Shown piece by piece: positions 9,130 through 24,090 of a stretch of 64,000 bases of DNA (positions are counted from its first letter, which is position 1; the number at the start of each line of letters is the position of its first letter). The notes below the pieces were generated by a model that was not told where the DNA came from, did no database searches, and saw nothing but the letters and a program-made list of their open reading frames with translations. The stretch comes from a bacterium (GTDB taxonomy: Bacteria; Patescibacteriota; Patescibacteriia; UBA2196), in the NCBI GenBank assembly GCA_035387885.1, contig DAOOOW010000001.1, positions 43,392 through 107,391 of the forward strand. The letters are read 5' to 3'. The position numbers were made by a program, and so were the translations under genes.

Positions 9130-9210
9130 ATCATTTTTATTATAACACTTTTTAAAAACCGCCAAAAGACTATAAATAAAATTTAAATTAGTATATAATA
9201 AAATCATTAT

Positions 9211-9292
9211 GCCGATGTGGTGCAATTGGTAGACACGCATGGTTTAGGACCATGTGGGGCAACCCATGAGAGTTCGAGTCTCTCCATCGGCA
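9211..9292 (+). tRNA. tRNA-Leu (anticodon TAG)
   Basis: Cloverleaf folded by hand. Anticodon loop TTTAGGA, long variable arm, T-loop TTCGAGT. Confidence 0.85.
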
Positions 9293-9312
9293 AATTTACT
9301 TTAATTCTATAA

Positions 9313-9922
9313 ATGAATGCCTCTAAAAAACACAATAAATTAATAGCGATTTTAGAAATTATTTTAATCTTTATCCTGCCTGTTTTGTTTTTGCGTTTGA
9401 GTATCATACCTAGAAATTTTTATTTACAAGTCTTGACAATTTGTACATTTTTAGTAATTGGATTAATTTTTATAGAAAAAATATCTTCAAAAAATCTAAA
9501 CATTAGAATTGACAATTTTAAAAAAACAATTTTTCCGCACTTTATTATTACTTTTGTGGGGGGGGGTAACTTTAATAGTTATGGCTATAATTCTTCATAA
9601 AGAAAAAATCAGTCTAAACCTCTGGTCGTTATTTTTTTTCTGGTCAATACCCATAAGTTTTATACAAGAATTTTTATACCGAGGCTTTTTAATATACAAA
9701 TTAAAAAAAATATTTAGTTCTAGTATCTTAATAATTCTAATTAATGCCAGTCTGTTTGCTTTTATGCATATTATATATGAACCTCTGGCCTTAATTTTAT
9801 TATTAACTTTTGTTCCTGGGCTTTTCTTATCCTGGTTATCTCTTAAATTCCCCAATCTGTGGCTACTTTCTTTAAGTCATGGCATTCTTAATTTTTTTGC
9901 TATTTGGTATGCTTTTTTTTAA
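9313..9922 (+). pseudogene. CPBP/CAAX-type intramembrane metalloprotease, split by a +1 frameshift in a G7 homopolymer (9558-9564)
   Basis: Two overlapping ORFs (9313-9600 in frame 1, 9509-9922 in frame 2). Deleting one G joins them into a protein of about 200 aa. CPBP motifs EFLYRGF and FAFMHI are present. Confidence 0.6.
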
Positions 9923-9934
9923 CCTTAAATTCTT

Positions 9935-10375
9935 ATGAGAGCATTTAAATATTACACTGTAAGTATCTTAACCTTTTTAGGAAATATTTTTTTGGCTTGG
10001 CTACTCGTATATTATGGGGGAATTCAATATATTATTGCCACGACGCTTGGTTTTTTATTTCAAACCTTGATGGCATTTTTTGTAAATAAAAAATGGACTT
10101 TCCATAAAGTAAAATTCCCGATATTTAAACCAGTTATTAAATTTTTAATTAGTAAAAAAATAATTCATCCGAAAAACAATCTCCCCAAAAGTATTTTAAT
10201 TACTACAATTGTTCAAATACTGGTCTTTCTCTTTGTTATTGCAGGTACAACAATTGGGATTAATACGTTTCAGTGGTCGTTTATTTTTTCTCGAATTTTA
10301 GCAGGAATAATTGCTGGTTTTCTGAGTTATTGCATGGACTCATATTTTACATTTAAAACAATACCATTTCGTTAA
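9935..10375 (+). CDS. GtrA-family membrane protein
   Basis: Four TM helices and a conserved KKWTF motif typical of GtrA-like proteins. Confidence 0.65.
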   Translation: MRAFKYYTVSILTFLGNIFLAWLLVYYGGIQYIIATTLGFLFQTLMAFFVNKKWTFHKVKFPIFKPVIKFLISKKIIHPKNNLPKSILITTIVQILVFLFVIAGTTIGINTFQWSFIFSRILAGIIAGFLSYCMDSYFTFKTIPFR

Positions 10376-10510
10376 ATAGTTAAAATTAATATATTATTCT
10401 TTTCCTTAAAAATCTGTTATAATAAATTCATCTTAAATATTTTCGCGTTCTTCCGCGATTTCTGTCAGCGTCCAGTCCGCGTCCAGTCCGCGTTAGTCCG
10501 CGTTTATTAT

Positions 10511-11923
10511 ATGAAATCCAAACTTCTCATTTTATTTTTTCTTTTAACCATTACTTTAAGCACTGGTTTTGGTTGCAAGGGTGGTGACAAGGTCGCTCAA
10601 AAAGCTATTCTTGACCCAGTGGAAATAAATTTCTGGGGAGTTTTTGATTCTTCAGATAATTTTGAAACAATAATTGCTGCTTATCAATTAACGCATCCCA
10701 ATGTAACTATCAAATACAAAAAGATGCGTTATGAAGATTATGAACAACAAATGTTAGAAAGTTGGGCCAATGGCACTGGTCCAGATATTTTTGCTATTAA
10801 TAATACCTGGGTTGGAAAATATCAAAACAAAATTCTGCCTTTGCCAGCAACTGTAAAAATTCCAGTCATCGAAACAACCTCTGGATTTTTGAAAAAAGAA
10901 ACTAAGGCTGTGATCAAAGAATACAATACTTTAAACATCAATCAATTAAAAAATATTTTTCCAGATGTTGTCTATAAAGATGTCACTCGTCAAGAACAGA
11001 TCTATGCTCTGCCTTTATCCATTGATACTTTGGCGCTTTATTATAATAAAGATCTTTTTAATGCCGCCGGTATTGTGCAAGCCCCAACCACTTGGCAAGA
11101 ATTTTCCGAAGATGTAACTAAATTAATTAGACTTAATGCCAAAGGCGAATTTGAGCGCTCGGCAGCTGCCATTGGTGGAGCAAATAATATCAATCGTTCT
11201 AATGATATTTTAAGTTTACTCATGATGCAAAATGGCGCCACTATGGTTGATGGTAAAGACAAAATTGCTTTTGCTAAAAATCTAAATTCTGATAGTGATG
11301 TCAGACCAGGCGAACAAGCTTTGCAATTTTATGCCAGTTTTGCTCAACCATCCAAAGATGTTTATACTTGGAATAATACTTTACCAGAATCATTAGATAT
11401 GTTTTCATCTGGTAAATTGGCCATGTTTTTTGGCTATAATTATCAATTGCCTTTAATTAAAGCTCAAGCGCCAAGAATTAATTTTGCCCTAGCCAATATG
11501 CCTCATCTAAAAAATGACACTACTGATGCTTTTGGTTTGCCCATAAATTTTGCCAATTATTGGCTCTACACTGTTTTTAAAAAATCTGCTCATACTGATG
11601 AAGCTTGGGATTTTCTAGTTTTTTTAACCACTAAACAATACCAAGATGCCAATGGTAAACCTAGATACTATGCTGAAGACTATTTAGATACGGCAGCCAA
11701 TCCACCAGCCTTAAAAAGTTTAATCCAAAATTATCAAAATAAATATCCAGAATTAGCACCTTTTGCCAGTCAAATTTTAACTGCCGATTCTTGGTATCGG
11801 GGTAAAAATCCAGATGAAGCTAATAAAATTTTAAAACAATTAATTAATACGGCCGTGCTTGGCAATGAAGAACTTTATCGCGCAATTTCTGCTGCTGCTT
11901 CGGCTATTCAGCAATCATATTAA
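10511..11923 (+). CDS. Extracellular solute-binding protein (ABC transporter, family 1 SBP), lipoprotein
   Basis: Signal peptide plus lipobox-like TGFGC. Length and motifs (GPDIF..NN.W) fit sugar-type SBPs. Confidence 0.75.
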   Translation: MKSKLLILFFLLTITLSTGFGCKGGDKVAQKAILDPVEINFWGVFDSSDNFETIIAAYQLTHPNVTIKYKKMRYEDYEQQMLESWANGTGPDIFAINNTWVGKYQNKILPLPATVKIPVIETTSGFLKKETKAVIKEYNTLNINQLKNIFPDVVYKDVTRQEQIYALPLSIDTLALYYNKDLFNAAGIVQAPTTWQEFSEDVTKLIRLNAKGEFERSAAAIGGANNINRSNDILSLLMMQNGATMVDGKDKIAFAKNLNSDSDVRPGEQALQFYASFAQPSKDVYTWNNTLPESLDMFSSGKLAMFFGYNYQLPLIKAQAPRINFALANMPHLKNDTTDAFGLPINFANYWLYTVFKKSAHTDEAWDFLVFLTTKQYQDANGKPRYYAEDYLDTAANPPALKSLIQNYQNKYPELAPFASQILTADSWYRGKNPDEANKILKQLINTAVLGNEELYRAISAAASAIQQSY

Positions 11924-11940
11924 TAATTCTAAAAAATATT

Positions 11941-12507
11941 ATGAAGAAAAAATATCTGCTCCTATTTTTTTCTTGTTTAATAATTCTAAATGGTATTTTG
12001 TTAAATTTTCCAATTGCTAAAGCCTCTTGTCTTTGCATTTGTCAAGATACAGCCAGAAACAGTACTTGTTTTTTTGACCAAAAAGATTCGGCGAGTATTT
12101 GTAAGGACACTTGCACAAACAACAACCTTGAATACCTAGATTGTGATAGTAGCAGACCAGATGAATCAGGATTTTATTGTACTACCCCAGGAACTCCAGA
12201 ACCAGCAGACGCCGCTAACGGTTCCAGCGGCAGCTCTGAGACAGCCAGTTTTGACAATCCAGTACCGATTTTTAATAAAAAATCTTTAGCTGATGTTGTT
12301 GGCTTAATTATTAAAGGCCTACTGGGTTTAATGGGAATAGCAGCTTTAGTTATTTTTATTTATGCCGGATTTTTGTGGATGTTTGCCAAAGGCAACAGCG
12401 CCCAAATTAAAAAATCAATTGATGTCATGAAATATTGTGTTTTGGGCATAGCTGTCATCTATTTATCTTATGCTATGTTAAAATTTGTTTTTGGGATTAT
12501 TAAATAA
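11941..12507 (+). CDS. Pilin-like secreted two-TM protein (VirB2/TrbC-like architecture) with a Cys-rich N-terminal variable region
   Basis: Signal peptide. C-terminal core GLIIKGLLGLMGIAALVIFIYAGFLWMFAKGNSAQIKKSIDVMKYCVLGIAVIYLSYA. Paralogous to 12761, 13126, 13789 and 32681. Confidence 0.55.
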   Translation: MKKKYLLLFFSCLIILNGILLNFPIAKASCLCICQDTARNSTCFFDQKDSASICKDTCTNNNLEYLDCDSSRPDESGFYCTTPGTPEPADAANGSSGSSETASFDNPVPIFNKKSLADVVGLIIKGLLGLMGIAALVIFIYAGFLWMFAKGNSAQIKKSIDVMKYCVLGIAVIYLSYAMLKFVFGIIK

Positions 12508-12760
12508 TTTTTTTTAGTTTATCCCTTTTTAGTTTATCCCGAGCGAATTTACCTTCAGGCAAATGCGCTGAGGGATCTCATTTCTATTCTTGTGTTTTTA
12601 TGTTTTAATGTTTTCATGTTATAATAATTGTGGATAATTATTAGCACCATTCGCAATTTAAAATATTCGTATTAATTCGCAATTTCAATTCGCACAATTC
12701 GCATTAAATAAAAAAGGTCGACTATATAAATTTTTTATTAATTATTTTCTATAAAAAACT

Positions 12761-13126
12761 ATGAACAAAAAAACCTTACAAAAGATTTTCTTTTCCTTGG
12801 CTTTAATTGTTTTAATTGCCCCTATCATGGTGGCTGCCGACGATTTTGGCATAGACAAATTAGATCCTCTTCATTTACCTAATCAAACAGCAGATCCAGA
12901 ATCAATCATCGGCAATGTGATTAACCTAATTCTAGGTTTTTTAGCTTTAATTGCTGTAATTATTATTTTAATAGCTGGTTTTGAATGGATGACTGCTGGT
13001 GGCAATGATAAAAGAGTAGAAACTGCTCAAAAAAGATTAAAATATGGTTTAATTGGTTTAATCATTATTTTCTTAGCCTACGGCATTGTTACCTTTGTTT
13101 TATCAACTCTTACCGATATTGTCTAA
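12761..13126 (+). CDS. Pilin-like secreted two-TM protein (VirB2/TrbC-like), minimal paralog
   Basis: Signal peptide, then LIAGFEWMTAGGNDKRVETAQKRLKYGLIGLIIIFLAYGIV core. Confidence 0.55.
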   Translation: MNKKTLQKIFFSLALIVLIAPIMVAADDFGIDKLDPLHLPNQTADPESIIGNVINLILGFLALIAVIIILIAGFEWMTAGGNDKRVETAQKRLKYGLIGLIIIFLAYGIVTFVLSTLTDIV

Positions 13127-13782
13127 TGAAACATTTAAATTTTAAAAATTTATTCAGCCTTAAAAGGCATCTAAATTTAATGGTTATTGCAATAACTATT
13201 GTTTTTTTATTTTCGTTTGTCTCCCCCGCATTTTGCGGGGGAGCGCAAGCAGCAGACACCGGACTGAAAGAAACAGCCGAAAAGGCTGGTTTACCAATTA
13301 CTGGCGATTTAACTGCTATTATTGGACAAATAATTTACACTATTCTGGGTTTCTTGGGTGTAGCTTTTGTAATTTTAGTTTTATATGGTGGGGCTAAACG
13401 CATGTTTGCCAAAGGAGATAGTAAACAAATCACAGATTCCAATGGCATTATCACTTCTGCTGTGGTGGGTGTGGCTATAATTTTATTATCTTATATTATT
13501 ACTGCTTTTGTTATCAGCCAAGTAAAAAGTAATATTGGAGCTGGAAGTGATACTACTTATCCAGTAAGTGGAGAGCCACGAGGCGCAGAATTACCAAGTT
13601 CTGGGTGTACACAGGACTCTGATTGTTCATGTAGTACAAGATTGCAACTGCCCAAATGTATTATAAGTTCTGGGATGTGTGATGTGTGTCAAAGTGTTCA
13701 ATGTATAGATGCTAGTGATTGTACTGGCGAAAGTCCAATAGGTTGGACTTGTGTAAATCATACATGCACGCAAGGTAACTAG
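13126..13782 (+). CDS. Pilin-like two-TM protein (VirB2/TrbC-like) with a Cys-rich C-terminal domain
   Basis: Core LYGGAKRMFAKGDSKQITDSNGIITSAVVGVAIILLSYII. C-terminal 60 aa with 12 Cys. Carries an in-frame CCCCCGCATTTTGCGGGGG palindrome. Confidence 0.55.
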   Translation: MKHLNFKNLFSLKRHLNLMVIAITIVFLFSFVSPAFCGGAQAADTGLKETAEKAGLPITGDLTAIIGQIIYTILGFLGVAFVILVLYGGAKRMFAKGDSKQITDSNGIITSAVVGVAIILLSYIITAFVISQVKSNIGAGSDTTYPVSGEPRGAELPSSGCTQDSDCSCSTRLQLPKCIISSGMCDVCQSVQCIDASDCTGESPIGWTCVNHTCTQGN

Positions 13783-13788
13783 TTTAAT

Positions 13789-14193
13789 ATGCTTTATTCT
13801 CTTTCTAAAAAACCATTGCTAATTATCTTATTTATTGCTTTGTTTTTTTATTGTTTTATTCCTGTGCCCTCACAGGCTTCTATTTTTGATGCTATCACCA
13901 CTAATTTAGGCATTTTTAATCAAGGCGCTGAATTGCCAACTAGCAATGTTGGCCTTGAAGGCATTGTGATTAATATTATTAATACCGCTCTTTCATTTTT
14001 GGGTTTAATATTTGTTTGTCTGGTGCTCTATGCTGGTTTTCTCTATATGACAGCCGCTGGTGAAACAAAAAAAGTAGAAAAAGCTAATAATATTTTAAGA
14101 GATTCGGTTATTGGTTTAGCTATTATTTTTGCTTCCTACGTTCTGGTCAATTATGTAATTACCGAAGTTATTAAACTTATTAAAACTGCTTAA
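13789..14193 (+). CDS. Pilin-like secreted two-TM protein (VirB2/TrbC-like)
   Basis: Signal peptide, then LYAGFLYMTAAGETKKVEKANNILRDSVIGLAIIFASYVLV core. Confidence 0.55.
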   Translation: MLYSLSKKPLLIILFIALFFYCFIPVPSQASIFDAITTNLGIFNQGAELPTSNVGLEGIVINIINTALSFLGLIFVCLVLYAGFLYMTAAGETKKVEKANNILRDSVIGLAIIFASYVLVNYVITEVIKLIKTA

Positions 14194-14415
14194 AAAAATA
14201 ATTATTTTTCTTAACTCCGACCACCCAGTCGGTTTTTTGTTTACCATAAAGTATATTTTATTAAATTAATTTTGTCTTACTACTATAACCACCCCGCCCG
14301 ACTCCGTCGAGGCACCCCTCCTTGAAAAGGAGGGGATAAATTTTATTCCTCTATTTTAATAGAAAAGAATATTAAAAAATAAAAAACGGCACTCATTGAG
14401 CGCCGTTTGTGTCTG

Positions 14416-14793
14416 TCATCTTCGCGACTTGGGGTTTCGAACTGCCCCAGCCGAGTTTATATCTTCCTCTGCTTGTCTTTGTCTCTGAGGAGTCAGCGAA
14501 CGAGAAGATTTTTTTTCATCTCCAGCAGATCTATGACCGTACTCTTGCTTATAAATTTTAACCTGTTTAGTCTGGCCAACAACCCCCACCGGGGTCTGTT
14601 CTGTAATTATCTCGGCCACAGTCCCGGTGATTGACTCTGCCTCTCCAGATTTAATTTTTTCAGAGACAGCTTCATTCATAGCACTCAGGCTATTGTTGTA
14701 ATTTGCTAGCGACTTGTGAATCGGGCTATAACATCCCGAGGCCACATACGCTACTAACAAAAAAACAACTGTCAAAACAAGTAGTTTTTTCAT
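14416..14793 (-). CDS. Putative lipoprotein (hypothetical)
   Basis: MKKLLVLTVVFLLVAYVASGC lipoprotein signal preceded by GGGAGG RBS. Lies in a region of elevated GC. Confidence 0.5.
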   Translation of the reverse strand: MKKLLVLTVVFLLVAYVASGCYSPIHKSLANYNNSLSAMNEAVSEKIKSGEAESITGTVAEIITEQTPVGVVGQTKQVKIYKQEYGHRSAGDEKKSSRSLTPQRQRQAEEDINSAGAVRNPKSRR

Positions 14794-14809
14794 CTCAACC
14801 TCCCAATAT

Positions 14810-15067
14810 TTAAAACCAACTTTCCACAAAATTCACCACTATTGGCCAGAGAACAGTGTTGGTAATTCCTTTAATCAGAAGAACCAATACTGCCGCCCAG
14901 CAAATGGAATGTAAGGTGGCAAAAAATATGGCCAATGTTTTGCTACCTTCATCTTTGCAATCATCTGCTTTTTCGACAAACCACAAACCGGCCAGAAAAA
15001 ACAATACAGCTACCAAAAAATGCGTAGCAAAACCTTGCGTCCAGTTTTGTTTAATAAGTTCCCACAT
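14810..15067 (-). CDS. Small integral membrane protein (hypothetical)
   Basis: Two or three predicted TM helices. Start uncertain. Same operon as 14416 and 15079. Confidence 0.4.
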   Translation of the reverse strand: MWELIKQNWTQGFATHFLVAVLFFLAGLWFVEKADDCKDEGSKTLAIFFATLHSICWAAVLVLLIKGITNTVLWPIVVNFVESWF

Positions 15068-15078
15068 AGTACCTCCTG

Positions 15079-15357
15079 TTATCTGGCTGGAGCGTTGAGC
15101 ATAATCCACCAGCTATACCAATCAATATCAAAATAATTAAAAAGAGTTAAAAACATAAACACAATGCCAGCAAAGGCAATAACACCTTCAATTACATCAA
15201 TTAAAAAAACAACTTTTTTTCCTATCTTCTTTTTCTTTTCAAAAAAAATACTAAGGCGATCTATGGAAAAATACAGAGCGGCACACAGACCAAGTGCAAC
15301 CAAGGTTGCCAATTGATCACGTATAAGATGCAACAGTGAACTTTCCGGAATCGGCAT
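15079..15357 (-). CDS. Small integral membrane protein (hypothetical)
   Basis: Two TM helices. First gene of the minus-strand operon. Confidence 0.45.
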   Translation of the reverse strand: MPIPESSLLHLIRDQLATLVALGLCAALYFSIDRLSIFFEKKKKIGKKVVFLIDVIEGVIAFAGIVFMFLTLFNYFDIDWYSWWIMLNAPAR

Positions 15358-15431
15358 AACAACCTCCTGCTATTAAATGACCTGATTTGAAATTACTATT
15401 TAATAAATCAGCATACTTTATTTGTATATTT

Positions 15432-15447
15432 TTGTCAACCTTGACAA
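15432..15447. promoter_or_regulatory. Perfect palindrome TTGTCAACCTTGACAA in the divergent promoter region. A second TTGACA..TATATT lies at about 15494-15515
   Basis: Read directly from the sequence. Sits between the divergent operons 15357(-) and 15539/15889(+). Confidence 0.4.
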
Positions 15448-15888
15448 AATTTTCAATCTATGCTAAGCTTGTATATTCTAATAAAAACAGCTCGTTGACA
15501 AATATTAATATATTAAGGAAGGAAAAAGGTGATTACTTGTGGCAAAAACCATAGCCACTTTTGTATATCAAACAAGTATCCCTACTAAGGATGAAAGGGG
15601 CCCATTCGTGGCTGTTCATTCTAAAATGATAACGGGGGTTCTTGTTAAGAAAACAGCGGGATGTATATGGATAAAACCGGCTGTTTTAAATGAGCGCGGA
15701 TCTGTTGTTTCTATTAATAGATCAATTGCGCAATTTTCAATCTCAAAAATATCTGGCCCGATAAACTTCAAGCAATCAAGCTAACGAGCCAGTATTTTAT
15801 ATTAATAAACAGACCGCGAAAAATTAATAGCTTTTCGTTGGTCATAGTGTTGTTTAATTTCTTAACTCCCATGGTGGAGGAGGAAAAA

Positions 15889-16812
15889 ATGAAAAAGAGC
15901 GAAACTTTTATTCCGGGCGCCAACCAAATCAGTATTGGGTATGTAGCACTGTTCCCCGGAAAACTGACCCAGCTGAGAGACGACATCCCATGGGTAAAAA
16001 CCCGTGTGCTCAACGGCAATTTGCCGGGGACGGAAAAGGACTCGGGGATAACCGTGGTGCCGTGTCATTTGGATCACGGCAAAATCACCTTACCCGAGGA
16101 CATTGCCAACCACGCGTGTATCCAAAGATGGGAACGCGATGGTGTGACCCATCAAGAGGGCGGTCCGCTTCAACCGGTTTATGCCCTCAAGTCTGTTGAA
16201 AGACGCGGAAAGGATGAAAATGGCAATGGATTCGTCATCCTGCCGTGTCTTACAGATGGCAGTGCCCCCTATGGGTCATTTGTACCCGCCCAAGACGGCC
16301 AAAAAGATTACATCGTCGCCTATGTCAACAACATTGTGGACGGCATAACGGTTATGCTGATGGTGGAAGCCATTGAAAACGGAGTCTATCACGCCCACAT
16401 CTCGGTCGCGAATTTTACAGTCAATAGTATGACCGGGGAAGTTTTGCGTGAGAACGCCATCAACAGAGCGTTTGTGGTCGAAGGACGTCCGGATACTCTG
16501 CCGAATTTTTCTTCAAGAGTCGGCGAAAAGTATCTCGAAGCCTTTAAGGCGGCTATGGCCATTTTCAAAAGTATGGCGAAAGGCGAACGCCAGTGCGCCA
16601 TGTGGGTCAAGGACATTACCCGTCCGATCACTGCCCCCGTCCCCGATGCACCGTCTCCGGTTGAAGAACCGGCATCGGCGCCCGCTCCGGAAGCGAAAAG
16701 CAAAGGTGGCAAAGGCAAAAAGGCTGCCAAACAGCCCACGGCCGATGTCACGACCAATGGTGGCAACGGCCACACCGACACTGTGCCAGCCCCCAACGAA
16801 GTTGTTGCCTAG
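15889..16812 (+). CDS. Hypothetical protein, strongly GC-rich (about 50% GC against about 30% background), Pro/Ala/Lys-rich C-terminal tail
   Basis: GGAGGAGG RBS before ATG 15889. No family recognised. Confidence 0.6.
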   Translation: MKKSETFIPGANQISIGYVALFPGKLTQLRDDIPWVKTRVLNGNLPGTEKDSGITVVPCHLDHGKITLPEDIANHACIQRWERDGVTHQEGGPLQPVYALKSVERRGKDENGNGFVILPCLTDGSAPYGSFVPAQDGQKDYIVAYVNNIVDGITVMLMVEAIENGVYHAHISVANFTVNSMTGEVLRENAINRAFVVEGRPDTLPNFSSRVGEKYLEAFKAAMAIFKSMAKGERQCAMWVKDITRPITAPVPDAPSPVEEPASAPAPEAKSKGGKGKKAAKQPTADVTTNGGNGHTDTVPAPNEVVA

Positions 16813-16831
16813 TCCATCAGGACAAGGCAGA

Positions 16832-16863
16832 AGCTCGTCTCTTAGGAGACGGGCTTTTTTATT
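16832..16863 (+). terminator. Rho-independent terminator
   Basis: AGCTCGTCTCTTAGGAGACGGGCT followed by TTTTTTATTTT. Confidence 0.6.
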
Positions 16864-16963
16864 TTTATTTTTTTAAAACTTTTATTTAATCCACAACTTG
16901 ACCGTTCATAATAATTCTGATAGCCTATTAAAATAAAATATAAAATATTTGGAGGAAAAAATA

Positions 16964-17458
16964 ATGCCCAAGCATACCGTAGCGTCTCTTAAAGAAATAC
17001 CTTATGAATTCCATCCTGATTTAGAAAAAATAATAATTGCCTCGCAAACAAACAGAGGCGAAGAAAGTGTGCAAAAAGTACTCATTTCTTTGGCGAGTCT
17101 TAAGGGTGTGGTAACCGTCATTCCCACCACCACTTATTCTAAAAGAGATCGCTATGGTATTGATATGCAAATTACAATTACTACACACACAAAACAAGAA
17201 AACCGGTTTGGCAAAATCGTTGCTAAAAAAGTGATCCTGACATTCCCTTTGCAAATCAAAAGTTCTGTGATAACAGCCCAAAATTTTATTACTAAATACC
17301 CAGAAAGAGAAATTCCTGTTCTGGTACATTTGCCAGGTGCAACCACAAAAGAAATTATTAATGCCTTTGGCAGATTATTAGACAAATATAAATCACCAAC
17401 GCAAAGGAAAAACGGCATCATTGAGATAGCCGGAGAATATTCAAAAGACTCACCATAA
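16964..17458 (+). CDS. Hypothetical protein
   Basis: GGAGGAAAAAATAATG RBS. No domain recognised. Confidence 0.5.
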   Translation: MPKHTVASLKEIPYEFHPDLEKIIIASQTNRGEESVQKVLISLASLKGVVTVIPTTTYSKRDRYGIDMQITITTHTKQENRFGKIVAKKVILTFPLQIKSSVITAQNFITKYPEREIPVLVHLPGATTKEIINAFGRLLDKYKSPTQRKNGIIEIAGEYSKDSP

Positions 17459-17540
17459 AGCCGAGATTAATTTAATTTTGGCTTTTCTTTTTTCTAAAAA
17501 TAAAGTACAATAAAAACAGTTATTGAAAATAAAAAAACAT

Positions 17541-17626
17541 GGAAGGGTCGCATAGTTGGTCTAGTGCGCACGCTTGGAAAGCGTGTGTGGGGCAACTCAC
17601 CGCGAGTTCGAATCTCGCCCCTTCCG
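17541..17626 (+). tRNA. tRNA-Ser (anticodon GGA)
   Basis: Anticodon stem-loop CACGC-TTGGAAA-GCGTG, long variable arm, T-loop TTCGAAT, discriminator G. Confidence 0.85.
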
Positions 17627-17765
17627 AATAGATGTCCTCAAGCAGACAAATGAACTGCTTCATTTGTCGGTGCGATTCGAACAGTTTTTCCTTATCCCGA
17701 AAACTCGGGATGGAAAAACATTGAGAATCCCTGCCTACCGGCAGACAGGTCGCCCCTTCCGAATT
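17627..17765 (+). repeat. tRNA-adjacent hairpin-rich element ending in a duplicate of the tRNA-Ser 3' end (GTCGCCCCTTCCGAAT)
   Basis: Direct repeat of the tRNA 3' terminus at 17611-17628 and 17749-17765. Internal hairpins, including ATCCCGAAAACTCGGGAT and CCTGCCTACCGGCAGACAGG. Confidence 0.5.
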
Positions 17766-17794
17766 CTATATTTTAAAAACTAAAACCCAAATAT

Positions 17795-18271
17795 ATGACC
17801 CCTGAACACAATCTTTTGTCTTGGAATTTTCTAGAATATCCCAATCACCAAAGACAAAAATCTTGGTACATTTTTGCTACCTTAATTTTTTTAGCTTTTT
17901 TAGCTTATGCGATTTTAACTGCCAATTTTCTGTTTGGTTTAATTATCATTATGGTAGCCATTATTATATTTATTAATCATAACAAAGAACCAAGAGAATT
18001 AACTTTTAGTATTGTACGCAATGGCATTTTAATAGAAAATAATCTTTATCGTTTTAAAGAGATTAAAAAATTTTGGTTGCTTTACGAACCACCACAAATA
18101 AAAAATATTTATTTTGAATTACAATCTGGTCTCATGCCAATTTTAACCATTCCCTTGGCTGAGCAAAATCCACTAACAGTTAGAAAAATTTTAAAAGACC
18201 ATTTGCAAGAAGATTTAACTAAAGAAAATGAATCAACTGCTGATGCTTTGGCTAGATATTTAAAACTTTGA
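17795..18271 (+). CDS. Hypothetical membrane protein (two TM helices)
   Basis: ORF with good coding texture. No domain recognised. Confidence 0.5.
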   Translation: MTPEHNLLSWNFLEYPNHQRQKSWYIFATLIFLAFLAYAILTANFLFGLIIIMVAIIIFINHNKEPRELTFSIVRNGILIENNLYRFKEIKKFWLLYEPPQIKNIYFELQSGLMPILTIPLAEQNPLTVRKILKDHLQEDLTKENESTADALARYLKL

Positions 18272-18319
18272 TTTTTTAAATAATCTATTTCGGAATTATT
18301 ATTTTGTATTATTATCTTT

Positions 18320-18391
18320 GCCCTTGTCGTTCAATGGATAGGACATGAGCTTGCGGAGCTCACAATGTAGGTCCGATTCCTACCGAGGGCA
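18320..18391 (+). tRNA. tRNA-Arg (anticodon read as GCG, with an unusual TCCGATT T-loop)
   Basis: Hand-folded cloverleaf: acceptor GCCCTTG/CGAGGGC, anticodon arm TGAGC-TTGCGGA-GCTCA. C at position 55 is atypical. Confidence 0.55.
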
Positions 18392-18552
18392 AAGATGATC
18401 ATAAAAAAATCTGCCAGTAAAAGTAAAGGTATTTTGTAGGTCCGTGGGTTTCGCGGTGTCCCTAAAGGGACACATCACTCAACCCGTTGTGGCTATAAAA
18501 ACTAAAGCAGTTTAGTTTTTATTTAACGCCACAACTCCTACCGAGGGCAAAG
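18392..18552 (+). repeat. tRNA-adjacent repeat element with a GCAG-loop hairpin, ending in a duplicate of the tRNA-Arg 3' end (CTCCTACCGAGGGCAAAG)
   Basis: Repeat of GTAGGTCCG and of the tRNA 3' end. Hairpin ATAAAAACTAAA-GCAG-TTTAGTTTTTAT is homologous to copies at 52565 and 26290. Confidence 0.5.
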
Positions 18553-18659
18553 ATAATTATAAAAAATAATAAAAATAATGATAAAAAGATAAAATTGACA
18601 AAAAATATTTTCTGAAGTATAATGGCTTTAGAGACAAAAATCAACCTTTTTACCTTTAA

Positions 18660-19007
18660 GTGGTTGATTTTTTTCTACTCAAATTAAAGGTCGTTCATGT
18701 TCTTTTACAAACTAAGTGGCAAAAAAGCAGCCTAAATGAGAAATATATGATATTATTTTTTATTGGCATTTTAGAAATGCTTATTGTCACTGCCTGGACA
18801 AAGGTAGTAACAAAAAACCAAATTATTGCCAGTGGAACTATCACCATCATTAATATCCTTATTTGGTATTATGTTTTAGAAACGGTTGTCAATGATATTA
18901 ATAATTGGCAATTAATTTTACTTTATGCTTTTGGTTGTGCCTTGGGCACAATTCTGAGTACTCTTTATTTTAAAAATAAAGAAACTAACCATGAATCAAA
19001 AGCCTAA
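18660..19007 (+). CDS. Small hypothetical membrane protein
   Basis: Three hydrophobic helices. The start may be the internal Met (MILFFIG). Confidence 0.4.
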   Translation: MVDFFLLKLKVVHVLLQTKWQKSSLNEKYMILFFIGILEMLIVTAWTKVVTKNQIIASGTITIINILIWYYVLETVVNDINNWQLILLYAFGCALGTILSTLYFKNKETNHESKA

Positions 19008-19053
19008 AAATGCTTTATGAGCAATCAAGCAGATGAGGCTGAACCTCAACCTT

Positions 19054-19097
19054 AAAACACCTCGATAAGATTGATTTTATCGAGGTGTTTTATTTTT
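19054..19097 (+). terminator. Rho-independent terminator
   Basis: AAAACACCTCGATAAGATTGATTTTATCGAGGTGTTTT followed by ATTTTTG. Confidence 0.6.
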
Positions 19098-19133
19098 GCC
19101 TACAAGCCTAAATATTGTTAAAATGTAATTATT

Positions 19134-21224
19134 ATGTCTTGGCAATTAAATACTGAACTTAAAACTTTAAATAAAATGGGGGCAGATCTGGCTCCCAAAT
19201 TTAAAAAACTGGGTCTTTTAACCATTGAAGACCTGTTGTTTTATTTTCCTTTTCGTTATGATGATTATTCTAATTTAATTAAAATTGAAAAATTGGTGCC
19301 CAATATTTTAACCACACTTAGAGTTAAAGTCGAATTAATTAGCAGCAGACGTTCTTTTAAAAAACACATGTTAATTACCGAAGCTGTGGTGGCCGACGAA
19401 ACTGGCCAAATTAAAATTATTTGGTTTAATCAAAATTTTATTGCTAAAATTTTAAATATTGGCGATGAAATTTATTTGTCAGGCAAACCCATAATCACCG
19501 ATCATAGTGCGGAATTCCATAACCCTGTATTTGAAAAAATCGGCAAGTTTGAAAAAGCCACTATGCACACCAATCGTTTGGTGCCAGTCTATTCCAGCAC
19601 TGAAAAACTTTCTCAAAAACAAATTAGATTTTTATTAAAACAAATCTTACCAGTTAGCGCGCAAATTCAAGAATGGTTACCCCAAGAAATCATGCTCCAA
19701 GAAAAATTTTTGGCCTTGCAACAAGCTATTTATCAAATTCATTTTCCCAAAGACCAAGCAACTTTGGAATTAGCCAAAAACAGATTGAAATTTGATGAAA
19801 TATTTTTATTACAAATTCATTCTGGTTTAATTAAAAAAGAATTGGCTCAGTTGCAAAGCCCCAAAATTAATTTTTTTGCCACAGAAACTAAAGAATTTGT
19901 GGACCAGCTACCTTTTAAATTAACCGACTCGCAAAAAAAAGCTGCTTGGGAAATTATTAAAAATTTAAATCACGGCAAACCCATGAACCGTTTGCTCGAA
20001 GGTGATGTGGGTTCTGGCAAAACCATTGCCGTAGCCTTGGCGATTTTTAATGTGCTCTTAAATAAATTGCAGGTGGCCTGCATGGAACCTACGGAAATTT
20101 TAGCCCAGCAACAGTTTAATGTTTTTAAAAAAAATTTTCAAAAATATAATTTTAACATTGCCCTTTTAACCAGTTCTTTAACCTATTTTAACAATGAACA
20201 TCTAAGTAAAAAAGAACTACTTAAAAAAATAAAAGACCGCACGGTCGATTTAGTTATTGGCACGCATGCTTTAATTCAAGAAAAAGTTATTTTTAATAAT
20301 TTGGCTCTAGTGGTTATCGATGAACAACACCGCTTTGGGGTAAGTCAAAGAAAAATGCTTAAAGAAAAATCTCAGAGCAACAAAAATATTCAAACCATGC
20401 CCCATTTATTGTCGATGACCGCGACTCCCATTCCTCGCTCTTTAAGTCTGACCCTTTATGGCGATTTGGATTTATCTATTATTGATGAAATGCCCTTGGC
20501 CCGCATGGCTATTCAAACAGAAATTATTGGTCCAGAAAAAAGAGCTCAAGTTTATAATTTTATCAAAGAACAAATCCAAGCCGGCCATCAAATTTTTATT
20601 GTTTGTCCTTTGATTGATCCTTCGGATAAACTGGGTGTTAAAGCCGTGGTTGAAGAGTTTGAAAAATTGGATAAAAAAATATTCCCGGAAATTTCCGTGG
20701 GTTTATTACACGGACGGCTTAAGGTCGAAGAAAAAGAAAAAATAATGCAAGATTTTAAAGCCCAAAAAATTAAAATCCTCGTAGCTACCGCGGTGATTGA
20801 AGTGGGTATCGATATACCTAATGCCACAGTCATGATGATCGAATCAGCAGAAAGATTTGGGCTTTCGCAATTGCATCAACTTCGCGGTCGGGTTGGCAGA
20901 AGTGAATACCAATCATATTGTTTTTTAATGACTGAATCTGAAAGTCCAGAAACTATGCGTCGTATGCATGCTATGCTCACAGCCAAAAATGGTTTTGAAC
21001 TAGCAGAAAAAGATTTAGAGTTTAGAGGTCCTGGAGAAATTTATGGCATTAAACAATCGGGTTTTAATGATCTTTTAAAAATTGCTAAACTCACCGATTG
21101 GTTATTGATTAAAAAAGCCAAACCTTGGGTTGATAAAATTTTACACATAGATCCAACTTTAAACAAATTTCCACTCATTAAAGAGAAAATCAAGAATTTT
21201 GAAATGAATTTACATTTTGAATAA
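19134..21224 (+). CDS. recG: ATP-dependent DNA helicase RecG
   Basis: Wedge domain plus SF2 helicase motifs (GDVGSGKT, DEQHRFGV, TATPIPRS, QLRGRVGR). Confidence 0.9.
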   Translation: MSWQLNTELKTLNKMGADLAPKFKKLGLLTIEDLLFYFPFRYDDYSNLIKIEKLVPNILTTLRVKVELISSRRSFKKHMLITEAVVADETGQIKIIWFNQNFIAKILNIGDEIYLSGKPIITDHSAEFHNPVFEKIGKFEKATMHTNRLVPVYSSTEKLSQKQIRFLLKQILPVSAQIQEWLPQEIMLQEKFLALQQAIYQIHFPKDQATLELAKNRLKFDEIFLLQIHSGLIKKELAQLQSPKINFFATETKEFVDQLPFKLTDSQKKAAWEIIKNLNHGKPMNRLLEGDVGSGKTIAVALAIFNVLLNKLQVACMEPTEILAQQQFNVFKKNFQKYNFNIALLTSSLTYFNNEHLSKKELLKKIKDRTVDLVIGTHALIQEKVIFNNLALVVIDEQHRFGVSQRKMLKEKSQSNKNIQTMPHLLSMTATPIPRSLSLTLYGDLDLSIIDEMPLARMAIQTEIIGPEKRAQVYNFIKEQIQAGHQIFIVCPLIDPSDKLGVKAVVEEFEKLDKKIFPEISVGLLHGRLKVEEKEKIMQDFKAQKIKILVATAVIEVGIDIPNATVMMIESAERFGLSQLHQLRGRVGRSEYQSYCFLMTESESPETMRRMHAMLTAKNGFELAEKDLEFRGPGEIYGIKQSGFNDLLKIAKLTDWLLIKKAKPWVDKILHIDPTLNKFPLIKEKIKNFEMNLHFE

Positions 21225-21317
21225 AGAAATAAACTTAGTAGCTTGCCTACTTTTTTAAAAAATGATACTCTAATACTACTGTTAACAATTAACCAGAGCT
21301 TTGCTCTTACAAATATT

Positions 21318-21575
21318 ATGCCTGAAACAAAAATTACTATTTATTCCACCCCCTATTGTGGATATTGCAAAATGGTCAAACAATATTTAGATGAACACAA
21401 AATTGGCTACACTGATATTGATGTCATGGTCGATGAAAAAGCAGCCCAATATATGGTTGAAAAAACCAAGCAACAAGGCGTACCGGTCACCATTATTGAA
21501 AAAGACGGCCAAGAAAATATTATCATTGGTTTTAATAAAGCAGAATTAGCTAAAATTTTAAATATTAATAATTAA
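21318..21575 (+). CDS. Glutaredoxin/NrdH-like redoxin
   Basis: CGYC active site in a thioredoxin fold (ITIYSTPYCGYCKMVKQYL). Confidence 0.7.
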   Translation: MPETKITIYSTPYCGYCKMVKQYLDEHKIGYTDIDVMVDEKAAQYMVEKTKQQGVPVTIIEKDGQENIIIGFNKAELAKILNINN

Positions 21576-21614
21576 CAACCAGTTGTTTTTTAACAATGGT
21601 CAAATATATTTTAT

Positions 21615-22343
21615 ATGTCAGAAACAAAAAATGAATCCAAAAAATTTATCACTGATTCCCCTAAAACAAATTTTTTTATTGGTCTTGTTTTGGGTGTTGC
21701 TATCATCTCCACAATCGGTTTTGTAGGACTTGGTATAACCAAAAAAGATTCTACTAAAAACACTGCCACTAATTCTGAGAACTCTGGGCAACAAGTAGCT
21801 GGTGAACAGGCTGAAGCGAAAGAACCTGTTGTTGATTTAAAAATTACTGACAGCGACCATGTCTGGGGTGATAAAAATGCTCCAGTAAAAATATTCGAAT
21901 TTTCAGATTTTCAATGCCCTTACTGTGCCAAACATCATGAAACACTAAAAAAAATAGTTGAAGATTATGATGGTCAGGTGGCTTGGGTTTTTAAACAATT
22001 TCCTATTCAATCACATCCTTTGGGTATGCCAGGAGCTTTGGCTTCTGAATGTGCCAATGAGCAAGGAAAATTTTGGGAAATGTCTGATATGATTTTTTCT
22101 AATCAAAGCACTTTAACTGCCGAAAGTTTTGCCAGTTTTGCTAAAGACTTAGGTTTAGACACAGAAAAATTTAATACTTGTGTTAAAGACGCCAAATACA
22201 CCGAAAGAATTACTGCTGATTATAATTTAGGTATTGATTCTGGAGTGCAAGGCACACCATCTAACTTCATCAACAACAAATTAGTTCCTGGCGCTTTGCC
22301 ATACGAAAATATAAAAAGCGTGATTGATGACTTGTTAAAATAA
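21615..22343 (+). CDS. DsbA-family thiol:disulfide oxidoreductase with an N-terminal TM anchor
   Basis: CPYC active site. DsbA-like length and motifs. Confidence 0.75.
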   Translation: MSETKNESKKFITDSPKTNFFIGLVLGVAIISTIGFVGLGITKKDSTKNTATNSENSGQQVAGEQAEAKEPVVDLKITDSDHVWGDKNAPVKIFEFSDFQCPYCAKHHETLKKIVEDYDGQVAWVFKQFPIQSHPLGMPGALASECANEQGKFWEMSDMIFSNQSTLTAESFASFAKDLGLDTEKFNTCVKDAKYTERITADYNLGIDSGVQGTPSNFINNKLVPGALPYENIKSVIDDLLK

Positions 22344-22429
22344 TCACTTGCTAATTAGAGCGAATTAATTGCTAATTTTACGAATATTTTAAAAGACCGT
22401 TATAAACGGTCTTTTAAAATTTTAAATTA

Positions 22430-23275
22430 TTATTTTACTTTAGACAGTTTAATTAAATTTTTAAAAAGATAAGCTACAGTTAATGGTCCAACCCCACCAG
22501 GCACAGGAGAAATATATTTTGTTTTAATTAAGCAACTTGGGTCAACGTCCCCAAATATTTTTTTGCCAACTCGATTTATACCTACATCAATTATGATAGC
22601 ATCTTTTTTTAGCATAGCTGGCTTTAAAAAATTTTTCTTACCAAGAGCGATAATAACAATACGGTAATTGGTAATTGGTAATTGGTAATTGGTAAATTGA
22701 CTTTTTGATTTTATAAAAACTTTAATTTTTTCTTTGGCTAATTCTTTTTTTAGAGATTCAGCAAATTCTTGACTATGACACAAGATGACGGCTTTTTTAT
22801 TAATTAATTTTTGTTTAGATAATTTAATCAAATGTAAAATACTCTGGATGGTTGGAGAAATTATCTCTGGTGACCTCTCCCCAACCCTCTCCTTATAAAG
22901 GAGAGGGGGATGCAGCCCGTCTACATCCTTTTTTTTGTCAATCAAAGAAATAATCTTATTAGTCTTAAATTTTTTAGGTAATGGTAGTTGCACCATTAGG
23001 CCAGTTATTTTTTTATCATTATTTAATTTTTTAATTAAGTTAACTATTTTTTGCTCGCTAACAGTTTCTGATAAATGATATTTAAAAAAATTAACACCAA
23101 TTTCTTTGGCGCGTTTTTCTTTGATAGCCACATAAATTTTTGAGGCCGGATCATGCCCAACTAAAATCACCGCCAAAGTTGGTTTAAATTTTAATTTCGC
23201 GATTTGTTTTTTCAAATCTAAAAATATTTTTTCTGCTTCTTTGGAACCATCAAGCAAAATTTGACTGTTGAGCAT
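22430..23275 (-). CDS. folD: Bifunctional methylenetetrahydrofolate dehydrogenase/cyclohydrolase FolD
   Basis: KDVDG.HP and GGVGP.T motifs. Carries an in-frame palindromic repeat (22885-22908) encoding PPLLYKERVGE. Confidence 0.85.
   Translation of the reverse strand: MLNSQILLDGSKEAEKIFLDLKKQIAKLKFKPTLAVILVGHDPASKIYVAIKEKRAKEIGVNFFKYHLSETVSEQKIVNLIKKLNNDKKITGLMVQLPLPKKFKTNKIISLIDKKKDVDGLHPPLLYKERVGERSPEIISPTIQSILHLIKLSKQKLINKKAVILCHSQEFAESLKKELAKEKIKVFIKSKSQFTNYQLPITNYRIVIIALGKKNFLKPAMLKKDAIIIDVGINRVGKKIFGDVDPSCLIKTKYISPVPGGVGPLTVAYLFKNLIKLSKVK
22885..22908. repeat. Palindromic element CCCTCTCC-TTATAAA-GGAGAGGG embedded in-frame in folD
   Basis: Identical 24-mer at the intergenic site 24575-24598. 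Half copy at 60826-60840. Related G/C variant at 24150-24174. Confidence 0.7.
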
Positions 23276-23836
23276 ATTTTTAGTAAGGTTAGGTTATTAA
23301 ATTAACCTTATTACTCGGAGGAAAAATGAACTTTTTTATCTTTTCAATACTCACCACAAGTGCTTTATTAATCATGGGTATATGGGTTGGTGTTTCTATT
23401 TTTCGTGGCACCACCAATGGAACATGGCGTTATTTGACAAAAAGCGTGTTTCACAGAATATTCACACGAAAGGAGTAAACTAATGTAATCATTAACAGGG
23501 GATTTTCTACCGGTTATCCACCATTGGAAAATTTCAGGAACTGCTTTTTTAATCAAATTATTAAAAGAAGCATATGACGCAGACCCTCTAATTATTCCAA
23601 TACATGTTTGTATGACTCGCAATCTATTTTTTGAAAAAAGAATCGCTACCCATGACTTCCGTCTTGGAAAATACTTGTTACGTCTGCCCATGTGGACAGG
23701 CAAAGAAGCACGGGAGGAGCTTGAGTGTAATCAAATGCTTCATTTTAAAATTACTGAAATTTCTCATCAAGAATAATAACAAAAAACGCAAAATACAATA
23801 TTTTCAACTACTCAGCAGCACTCCCAAGGAGGCACT

Positions 23837-24040
23837 ATGACATTCCAAGAGGTAGCCATAAGACGTTACTTCATCTGCAAAAAAAATGGTGTTTTATATT
23901 TCAAGACGTCAGAAACAAATGCGCGATATTGGATTATGCATAAAGCAACGTGGGGCGAGGTTACAAATGAGGATCTTCCAAAGCTGGGGGATGTTTTCAT
24001 ACCCAGTGCTGAGGAACTCACAGAAAGACTGGACATCTGA
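23837..24040 (+). CDS. Small hypothetical protein (67 aa)
   Basis: GGAGG RBS 7 nt before ATG. Followed by a strong terminator. Locally elevated GC. Confidence 0.45.
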   Translation: MTFQEVAIRRYFICKKNGVLYFKTSETNARYWIMHKATWGEVTNEDLPKLGDVFIPSAEELTERLDI

Positions 24041-24058
24041 AAATAATTGTCTCTCCAT

Positions 24059-24090
24059 CTGCCAGTTGCAAAACTGGCAGTTTTTATTTT
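24059..24090 (+). terminator. Rho-independent terminator
   Basis: CTGCCAGTTGCAAAACTGGCAG followed by TTTTTATTTTTT. Confidence 0.65.

Follow-up and report, generated by a model that had tools for sequence, protein, structure and literature searches.

GC-rich genes beside a tRNA-Ser gene of a Patescibacteria-like genome: probably the variable core of an old locus and not a foreign island

Introduction

Why does a chromosomal stretch with an overall GC (guanine plus cytosine) content of 33.1% carry a block of far GC-richer genes in front of a tRNA gene? The stretch in question comprises 64,000 nucleotides of contig DAOOOW010000001.1 (assembly GCA_035387885.1) and is called the window throughout; the block lies at 14.3-17.5 kb, upstream of a gene for tRNA-Ser(GGA). 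An earlier note on this DNA (the original prediction) had regarded the block and several other GC-rich genes of the window as foreign-looking, possibly old host-derived acquisitions under dedicated regulation, one of them encoding a protein that resembles a β-barrel outer membrane protein (OMP). Comparison with a near-clonal strain and with more distant relatives leads us to a different answer: the region is probably the variable core of an ancient, lineage-specific locus, hypervariable by replacement, and not a foreign island.

The gene anatomy itself had been described correctly. The block contains a minus-strand operon for a lipoprotein and two small two-helix membrane proteins, a small open reading frame (ORF), a GC-rich orphan gene for a protein of 307 amino acids (aa) with a Pro/Ala/Lys tail, and a gene for a 164-aa protein (Table 1). 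Elsewhere in the window, the OMP-like gene does encode a protein with a signal peptide and the C-terminal end HTF.

Divergence between near-clonal strains

We compared the window with the metagenome-assembled genome (MAG) GCA_964498445.1 of a sister strain by blastn and by sliding identity along MAFFT alignments, covering about 30 kb of backbone. A homolog of the 307-aa gene occupies the same place in this strain and in several Logan assemblies. The backbone (6060-12459 and 16860-26804) is 99-100% identical at the nucleotide level except for a few short dips, and the synonymous divergence (dS) of its genes is 0.002-0.01. Identity falls to 81-94% in the pilin-like genes (12460-14259), whose products are 89-95% identical (dS 0.29-0.47; ratio of nonsynonymous to synonymous divergence, dN/dS, 0.05-0.18). 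In the island core (14260-16660) it is 53-69%, which is the random level and leaves this part unalignable, and in the tail-coding end and terminator of the 307-aa gene (16660-16859) it is 83%. Two intergenic pieces, 14361-14453 and 15347-15520, are 83-90% identical to the sister strain.

The island proteins of the two strains are homologous gene for gene, with 25-44% identity over aligned residues, saturated dS and a dN of 0.56-0.82, and their C-terminal ends are conserved: ...NPKSRR in the lipoprotein, ...NTVLWP..N.V.S.F in the 85-aa membrane protein and KGGKGKKAAKQP...NGHTDTVPAPNEVVA in the tail of the 307-aa protein, which closes with NGHTDTVPAPNEVVA. Across the diverged genes, dN/dS is 0.14-0.44. 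With synonymous sites saturated and dN/dS values under 1, the island versions are old alleles under purifying selection; local hypermutation did not produce them.

The body of the lipoprotein is variable, its alleles in L002 and L005 (L numbers denote loci from other haplotypes and lineages) being 30-44% identical to that of the window, and the lipobox Cys is kept in L002, L005, L014 and L019. Apart from its C-terminal motif, the 85-aa membrane protein is variable as well. A small partner gene precedes the large gene in L002, L005, L014, L017, L019 and L020. The counterparts of the small ORF in relatives are 104-157 aa long and mostly carry an N-terminal CPxC...CxC zinc ribbon, which by alignment is missing in the window copy. 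The 307-aa protein has no signal peptide; its fold is predicted with moderate confidence and found no match in PDB or BFVD.

Within genes that elsewhere match the sister strain completely (100%), identity drops to 82-91% in three short tracts of 100-200 bp: 19260-19459 (RecG N-terminus), 17260-17459 (164-aa gene) and 42229-42428 (3' end of a TrmB-family gene). Such tracts would fit short imports by gene conversion from diverged relatives.

Exchange of modules among haplotypes

A third haplotype, L005/L006, makes the arrangement of the variation visible. Its large gene is 100% identical to that of haplotype L002 and its small upstream gene 95%, whereas the proteins of the lipoprotein operon are 37-50% identical and that of the 164-aa gene 46%. 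The window and L002, in turn, have the 164-aa allele in common (96% identity, against 45-46% to L005). In the three-way alignment, the switch points lie in a terminator (14370-14466), in the divergent promoter (15386-15482) and in two spacers between terminator and promoter (about 16870 and about 17466). At the left junction (14361-14466) the three haplotypes are 81-86% identical, compared to about 45% in the adjoining coding sequence (CDS). The centre of the promoter region (15386-15482) is 89-94% identical across all three, and here the relation of L002 to L005 flips from diverged on the left to 88-100% identical on the right; this piece is a conserved junction at which modules recombine. 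At the right junction, identity to L002 returns at 16624 and climbs from 74% to 100%.

The alignment thereby resolves at least three modules that are inherited separately, namely the lipoprotein operon, the pair of small and large gene, and the 164-aa gene, and that re-assort by homologous recombination at the conserved linkers. Identical alleles in different module combinations require exchange and cannot come from mutation. Since each haplotype recurs in at least two independent assemblies (that of the window in five), chimeras are ruled out. The window also encodes RecA, which counts for recombination.

Composition of the GC-rich genes

Third-position GC (GC3) was scored for 57 ORFs of the window (median 0.244, robust standard deviation 0.045), and ORFs with z>=3 were taken as outliers. 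Several blocks of 40-52% GC had been claimed. Six ORFs are indeed outliers (Table 1), but 16964-17458 (GC 0.37, GC3 0.31, z 1.4) and 15079-15357 (GC 0.35, GC3 0.30) stay below the limit. This corrects the original list: the 164-aa gene is not GC-rich, and within the lipoprotein operon the first gene is ordinary while the other two are moderately elevated. The values for the 307-aa gene (about 50% GC expected), the OMP-like gene and the receiver-like gene agree with what had been stated. The supposed 3-kb GC-rich block does end 82 bp before the tRNA, but it consists of one gene of about 0.9 kb (50-60% GC) and a weakly raised 0.65 kb. The second-strongest outlier, 39205-39531, had been missing from the list. 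The pilin-like genes have an ordinary GC3 of 0.22-0.25.

The GC excess extends over all synonymous classes: C-ending codons of two-fold boxes reach 0.47 (versus 0.16), G-ending ones 0.29 (versus 0.10), and four-fold boxes are raised too. The excess stops at the ends of the CDS in every lineage, with flanking spacers of 0.26-0.39 GC.

Conservation of the locus in relatives

The gene order is tRNA-Leu, solute-binding protein, pilin-like genes, minus-strand lipoprotein operon, small ORF, protein of about 300 aa, tRNA-Ser(GGA), 158-aa membrane protein, tRNA-Arg and RecG. L014 carries the complete locus, with tRNA-Leu(TAG), the solute-binding protein, five pilin-like genes, the minus-strand lipoprotein, a zinc-ribbon ORF, the large gene, tRNA-Ser(GGA), the 158-aa protein, tRNA-Arg(GCG) and RecG. 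In L019 and L020, the small ORF and the large gene are followed by the 5' part of tRNA-Ser(GGA) at the contig ends. The homologs P0006, P0007 and P0011 of the 307-aa protein are all encoded upstream of tRNA-Ser(GGA), each after a small ORF (with zinc ribbon in L014 and L019), and the minus-strand lipoprotein gene is found in L014 and L019. In every relative with readable flanks the homolog lies directly upstream of this tRNA gene; the site is always occupied by homologous genes and no empty site was seen among these relatives. The order is kept in lineages down to 54% identity in the neighbouring 158-aa protein. L014, L019 and L020 lack the 164-aa gene at this locus, their large gene abutting the tRNA; the 164-aa gene is therefore a later addition.

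The GC3 of the large gene exceeds that of its neighbours throughout: 0.58 versus about 0.24 in the window, 0.56 versus 0.19-0.39 in L002, 0.35 versus about 0.19 in L014, 0.78 versus 0.40 in L017, 0.42 versus 0.18-0.23 in L019 and 0.59 versus 0.13-0.19 in L020. The excess is always positive (+0.16 to +0.40). In all lineages sampled it is a stable property of the variable gene families and limited to the CDS. The original prediction had named the same GC skew in all relatives as the observation that would speak against horizontal transfer, and this skew is what we found, at syntenic positions.

The tRNA gene nevertheless invites another explanation, in which a mobile element or defence island integrated at a tRNA hot spot has degenerated, leaving the remnant of a small prophage, satellite or plasmid that is shuffled in the manner of phage mosaics, with GC content taken from the mobile pool. 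We consider this unlikely. With tRNA-linked additive islands and integrative elements the locus has in common its adjacency to a tRNA gene, atypical composition, strain-specific content (here within 80 bp of the tRNA) and a duplicated tRNA 3' end nearby. The 15-bp exact direct repeat TCGCCCCTTCCGAAT is found at 17615-17629, the 3' end of tRNA-Ser, and again at 17750-17764, 135 bp downstream, and resembles an att-type trace left by an earlier integration or excision event. However, it brackets 120 bp downstream of the tRNA, an interval 100% conserved in the sister strain, while the island is on the 5' side of the tRNA, outside the repeat; unlike additive islands, it has no integrase and its contents are homologous and syntenic.

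Modular exchange at conserved linkers would also suit a mobile element. In L019 (1180-2181) an inserted IS30-like transposase gene (HTH_38 and rve domains) separates the lipoprotein gene from the zinc-ribbon ORF, which shows that the site tolerates insertions, and the more distant L018, a single locus obtained from a metagenome scan with the 158-aa protein as anchor, has unrelated genes upstream of tRNA-Ser genes. A lipoprotein gene beside two genes for small membrane proteins is reminiscent of a lysis cassette in layout, and there are weak hints from family scans: YabQ and holin-like matches of the 92-aa membrane protein, both below threshold, and a match of the 164-aa protein to the nuclease-fold family DUF4365 (PD-(D/E)xK-like) with 16.9 bits against a cutoff of 24.3 (E 0.0067), given by one of two alleles and without PDB or PADLOC support. 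But no island ORF matched Pfam, PHROG, NCBIfam or PADLOC above threshold, the remainder being noise (YabQ, holin, RDF, DUF4365, HMW1_D2), and scans of the island ORFs and their neighbours revealed no integrase, replication, packaging or structural genes. As had been noted before, no integrase, transposase or phage structural gene accompanies the GC-rich blocks; these families and reverse transcriptases were absent from the scanned ORFs and neighbour annotations, which take in most of the window's ORFs. Two scans of 2.9 million viral contigs found no relative of the 307-aa protein, nor did its fold match BFVD. A gene order kept at one site over such distances is not expected of a mobile element, and the absolute GC content of the large gene, 0.40 to 0.60 across lineages, does not point to a common external pool.

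The OMP-like gene

A second GC-rich gene repeats the pattern on a smaller scale. The 193-aa OMP-like protein begins with the signal-peptide-like MEKMMIAMLVLAVATMVMA, after which the mature part of about 174 aa starts with QK; it is rich in Gly, Ser and aromatic residues, has many short predicted β-strands and ends in ...ALKHTF, with the terminal KHTF conserved in three homologs. Between strains the gene diverges to 71-82% nucleotide identity, confined to 40629-41228, whereas the flanks, both adjacent TrmB-family genes included, match completely (100%) except for a brief dip where 41662-42393 has its 3' end. The gene has a dS of 0.83, a dN/dS of 0.14 and a GC3 of 0.44-0.52 in all three alleles, and it shows allelic replacement confined to the CDS.

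The proposed β-barrel that is recognized by the β-barrel assembly machinery (BAM) fared less well. The signal peptide and the C-terminal HTF are present, and in size, Gly/Ser/aromatic content, short predicted β-strands and C-terminal Phe the protein is similar to diderm barrels of the OmpX/OmpA/OmpW class. In contrast to these, it matches no OMP family of Pfam or NCBIfam even at E<=10 and no PDB sequence, and its AlphaFold model (pLDDT 33, pTM 0.29) is unusable. Its β hydrophobic moment of 0.84 is not above that of 500 shuffled sequences (0.81 +/- 0.09, z 0.3; a crude test), so that no dyad periodicity in excess of the shuffles is seen. The barrel prediction, whose failure had been named beforehand as a refutation, thus failed. 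A C-terminal Phe alone is no BAM signal. In addition, the window (64 kb of the genome) shows no sign of an outer membrane assembly machinery, with Omp85, Lpt and Lpx genes all absent from it. The product may be a secreted β-rich protein of any topology, for example a β-sandwich.

Of the dedicated regulation that had been proposed, the position of the OMP-like gene between two paralogous TrmB-family genes is compatible with such control. A segment of about 65 bp upstream of the OMP-like gene (41331-41398) recurs in inverted orientation upstream of the TrmB-family gene 39863-40606 (39620-39682), which suggests that the regulator was duplicated together with its promoter. In the more distant lineage L013, this paralog and the GC-rich 108-aa ORF are both lacking (39147-40600).

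Search for donors

Acquisition of these genes from GC-richer foreign donors, either diderms or the host of a symbiont, and including a BAM-dependent β-barrel, would explain the atypical GC content and codon usage, the lack of paralogs of the GC-rich genes in the window, and the signal peptide, predicted β-hairpins and terminal Phe of the OMP-like protein. We regard it as very improbable. Among 5.8 billion clustered proteins, the 307-aa protein had two matches (itself and a 40%-identical homolog), the OMP-like protein three (100, 80 and 71% identity) and the receiver-like protein one (96%); all belong to the same narrow lineage and are syntenic, and no homolog outside it was found. A profile search of 1.84 billion representative proteins raised the 307-aa family to seven relatives, again of the same kind, and no credible match came from PDB profile searches with the 164-aa protein and the OMP-like protein. 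The GC excess is moreover conserved in all relatives and shows no amelioration, and the barrel evidence failed as described. The donor searches that had been suggested for the products of 15889, 40654 and 61450 thus speak against a foreign or host origin. What stands of the old host-derived acquisitions is their age, as seen from the saturated dS, and the absence of mobility genes; for an origin in a host or another foreign organism no outside homolog speaks. The compositional outliers also coincide with the DNA that strains exchange.

In-situ targeted hypermutation, by a diversity-generating retroelement or error-prone repair and with GC-richness as a mutational by-product, is highly improbable. 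The divergence boundaries do coincide sharply with the OMP-like CDS, and genomes of the Candidate Phyla Radiation (CPR) are rich in diversity-generating retroelements. However, no reverse transcriptase gene, no template/variable repeat pairs, and no silent cassettes or paralogs of the GC-rich genes were found in the window; divergence spans whole genes of 0.6-0.9 kb plus several neighbours, and saturated synonymous sites, dN/dS of 0.14-0.44 and identical alleles in different module combinations mark old alleles under purifying selection. Chimeric assembly or binning contamination with GC-rich DNA has next to no probability: the data are metagenome-assembled and sister MAG contigs break near variable loci (the contig with the OMP-like locus measures only 4.9 kb), but assemblies of different samples (JGI, ENA, NCBI and Logan) contain identical junctions and the identical haplotype, backbone adjoins the GC-rich genes on both sides within single contigs of 65-120 kb, and other lineages carry homologous GC-rich genes at this site.

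Maintenance of the GC excess

If the GC-rich genes are replaced alleles of old local families, their composition needs an explanation of its own. Translational selection was considered as its cause and rejected: G- and C-ending codons rise together, and selection for efficiency is unlikely because the genes for ribosomal protein, EF-P, PNPase and DnaN have ordinary GC3.

We counted third-position changes by parsimony in three alleles of the OMP-like gene and of a TrmB gene about 430 bp away. The OMP-like gene (GC3 about 0.5) showed 45 changes from strong (G or C) to weak (A or T) bases and 35 in the opposite direction, implying an equilibrium GC3 of about 0.44; the TrmB gene (GC3 0.28) showed 27 and 17, implying about 0.20. 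The sequences are saturated, and these counts are indicative only. They suggest that the GC excess is at equilibrium and not decaying. An old acquisition left to ameliorate therefore seems an insufficient explanation, and a gene-specific process would keep the GC content high.

GC-biased gene conversion (gBGC) is one candidate for such a process. A positive link between recombination and the GC content of genes has been described across bacteria (Lassalle et al. 2015, PMC4450053). Our data are similar in that the recombining genes are the GC-richest, all synonymous classes are affected and the effect is independent of optimal codons; across 30 genes, GC3 correlates negatively with aa identity to the sister strain (Spearman rho -0.61, p 4e-4). 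They differ by the confinement to the CDS, by an effect that in our judgement is far larger, and by the recombinant pilin-like genes, which show no GC excess. The pilin-like genes imply that recombination alone does not yield the excess, and together with the CDS restriction and the effect size they argue against a pure gBGC account.

A stronger statement combines both observations: orphan families kept 15-40 points above the genomic GC3 by an active gene-specific process, the same genes being the hypervariable, exchanged alleles. We put this forward tentatively, as a possibility we rather doubt. If true, it would imply unusually strong local gBGC, or else a device dedicated to recombining or diversifying envelope or partner-interaction genes. 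The system would then be the CPR counterpart of GC-rich loci for antigenic variation such as vls of Borrelia, built on proteins without known fold and including a possible membrane β-barrel in a lineage thought to have no outer membrane.

An ancient locus of exchangeable alleles

The reading that we prefer, an old locus with replaceable alleles, can be put as follows. The locus is an ancient fixture at one chromosomal site of the lineage, with its core present as deeply diverged homologous alleles in near-clonal strains. Modules are swapped by homologous recombination at short conserved intergenic junctions, resulting in allelic replacement. Negative frequency-dependent selection on envelope or partner-interaction determinants may hold the polymorphism, with phage receptors or host-cell recognition in an episymbiont as candidate targets. 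We infer such selection from the lipoprotein, membrane proteins and secreted protein among the variable products and from the replacement-island pattern. The GC excess would be kept by a gene-specific fixation bias, be it gBGC, selection on coding or mRNA composition, or both.

Several points weigh against this reading. The parsimony count uses saturated sequences, and the alleles may partly have evolved in other genomic backgrounds. The pilin-like genes are recombinant (dS 0.3-0.47) yet not GC-rich, and a GC3 excess of +0.16 to +0.40 that is restricted to the CDS is, in our own judgement, larger and sharper than expected of bacterial gBGC. The comparison covers three haplotypes and six lineages, and contig scans of a genome collection, for which the alignment of the 307-aa family and the 158-aa anchor protein served as queries, returned no matches; the MAG GCA_964498445.1 is evidently no species representative in that collection. 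Both the role of the island genes and the membership of the organism in the CPR are what we infer. Finally, the GC-richest product, the 307-aa protein, has no signal peptide, which leaves its surface exposure unsupported; the island encodes a lipoprotein and two membrane proteins and no glycosyltransferases.

Replacement islands are known as divergent versions at one locus, with recombining flanks and exposed products (PMC4898812). Similar to the replacement flexible genomic islands of Alteromonas, Prochlorococcus and others (PMC4898812), the tRNA-Ser locus has unalignable versions at the same site between near-identical flanks, raised divergence and recombination in the shoulders (here the pilin-like genes), exchange of versions between clonal frames, putatively envelope-associated products among its contents and no integrase. 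The same version in different module backgrounds, as expected of such an island, was observed for the large gene (identical in L002 and L005) and for the 164-aa allele (window and L002). Classical replacement islands, in contrast, are glycosylation clusters of 10-40 kb (O-chain, capsule) with unrelated content and usually lower GC, whereas the tRNA-Ser locus measures 2.4-3.2 kb, is without glycosyltransferases and homologous gene for gene, re-assorts its modules at intergenic linkers and is GC-richer than the genome. The kind of locus is thus already known, as replacement-type hypervariable island or balanced allelic polymorphism. The tRNA-Ser locus differs in its tiny size, its gene-for-gene homology, its modularity, the orphan families without known folds, the CPR-like genome and the inverted compositional polarity, GC-rich and conserved across lineages.

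The vls locus of Borrelia is markedly GC-richer than its genome and varies by gene conversion. Like this hypervariable lipoprotein and surface-protein locus in a very AT-rich genome (for the vlsE/silent-cassette system and its variability among strains, see PMC5193363), the tRNA-Ser locus stands out from its background. Unlike vls, which varies within the cell by conversion from silent cassettes, it varies between strains, with no cassettes or paralogs in the window, and its proteins have no sequence or fold similarity to those of vls.

CPR bacteria (Patescibacteria) are mostly uncultured episymbionts, and their determinants of host recognition and phage interaction are largely unknown. As a compact three-module cassette of orphan genes by a TrbC-like pilin cluster, the tRNA-Ser locus is a candidate for such a determinant. 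Otherwise clonal strains differ mainly here, and distant relatives have the locus at one and the same site. In such genomes, GC-rich does not imply recently imported, and compositional detectors of the IslandViewer type would call these loci foreign. The locus could also serve as a natural system for separating gBGC from selection on coding composition.

Other features of the window

The assignment of the source organism to the CPR follows from gene traits of the window that fit it: dnaA and dnaN, recA, recG and uvrA, an enlarged 23S rRNA gene, the TrbC/VirB2-like genes and a PilT-like ATPase (Table 1). An insertion in the 23S rRNA gene together with an adjacent LAGLIDADG ORF is a pattern typical of CPR rRNA genes. 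The organism would be monoderm to the extent that this assignment holds. The highest-GC kilobases outside the island (1-4 kb) correspond to the 23S rRNA gene. The cumulative GC-skew minimum at about 47 kb places the replication origin within the window, and the variable loci are about 6 kb, 14 kb and 30 kb away from it.

Table 1. Features of the window and composition of the GC3 outliers (z relative to the 57 scored ORFs; T4SS, type IV secretion system).
Feature	Position	Strand	GC / GC3 / z	Evidence and remarks
LAGLIDADG homing-endonuclease ORF	508-1029	-		immediately adjoins 23S rRNA gene
23S rRNA gene	1053-4296	-		match spans 3244 nt versus 2925-nt model; about 320 nt of insertions
Three TrbC/VirB2-like "T4SS pilin" small membrane protein genes (121, 218, 134 aa)	12761-14193	+		Pfam PF04956/PF18895, neighbour annotation
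Hypervariable core	14270-16660			unalignable with GCA_964498445.1; flanks 99-100% identical
Terminator-like hairpin of minus-strand operon	14384-14408	-		terminator scan; inside left conserved junction 14361-14466
Lipoprotein gene, 125 aa from ATG 14793	14416-14793	-	0.44 / 0.38 / 3.0	translation; signal peptide with ...VASG before lipobox C
Small two-helix membrane protein, 85 aa	14810-15067	-	0.39 / 0.38 / 3.1	translation; 34-53% identity among haplotypes
Small two-helix membrane protein, 92 aa	15079-15357	-		first gene of minus-strand operon; 31-45% identity among haplotypes
Divergent promoter region	15358-15538		0.26 / /	AT-rich; promoter-like sites on both strands
Small ORF, 81 aa, upstream of large gene	15539-15784	+		25% identity to L002 allele
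GC-rich orphan gene, 307 aa	15889-16812	+	0.53 / 0.58 / 7.5	strongest outlier; predicted β-rich core (residues 1-244), two C-terminal helices, disordered Pro/Ala/Lys tail
Right conserved junction	16624-16963	+		tail-coding 3' end of large gene, terminator 16829-16858, promoter region of next gene
164-aa protein gene	16964-17458	+		third exchangeable module
tRNA-Ser(GGA)	17540-17627	+		ARAGORN and Rfam; conserved right anchor in all lineages of 307-aa family
PilT/T2SSE-type ATPase gene	31593-32627	-		adjoins 329-aa T4SS_pilin gene
T4SS_pilin-domain protein, 329 aa	32681-33670	-	0.39 / /	second pilin-related locus
108-aa orphan ORF	39205-39531	-	0.49 / 0.50 / 5.8	second-strongest outlier; dS 0.10 versus 0-0.006 in flanking genes; no family matches
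OMP-like gene, 193 aa, secreted β-rich orphan	40654-41235	-	0.43 / 0.44 / 4.3	between paralogous TrmB-family genes 39863-40606 and 41662-42393
dnaA and dnaN	46989-49724			cumulative GC-skew minimum at about 47 kb
Receiver-like protein, 184 aa	61450-62004	+	0.45 / 0.42 / 3.8	PF00072 with 25.7 bits versus 30.2 cutoff, residues 38-114 only

The receiver-like and 108-aa genes also appear as local divergence peaks. Precomputed annotation lists the PF00072 match of the receiver-like protein as weak, and its gene holds 28 of the 36 mismatches to the sister strain across 6.6 kb. Directly after it, the sister strain carries an extra 1.4 kb (window 62049-62248 versus L024 6600-8060). This insert holds two ORFs, one of 222 aa and one of 164 aa that is again receiver-like and GC-rich (0.51). 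Short, perfect, GC-rich hairpins, probably the hairpin array of the original prediction, cluster in intergenic regions and gave no Rfam match above threshold. One cluster (60782-60961) lies between a HicB-like ORF and the receiver-like gene, the others (52362-52426 and 52686-52715) in a 700-bp ORF-free stretch before recA. After the site of the strain-specific insertion or deletion, an AbiEii-family gene is found at 62361-63053.

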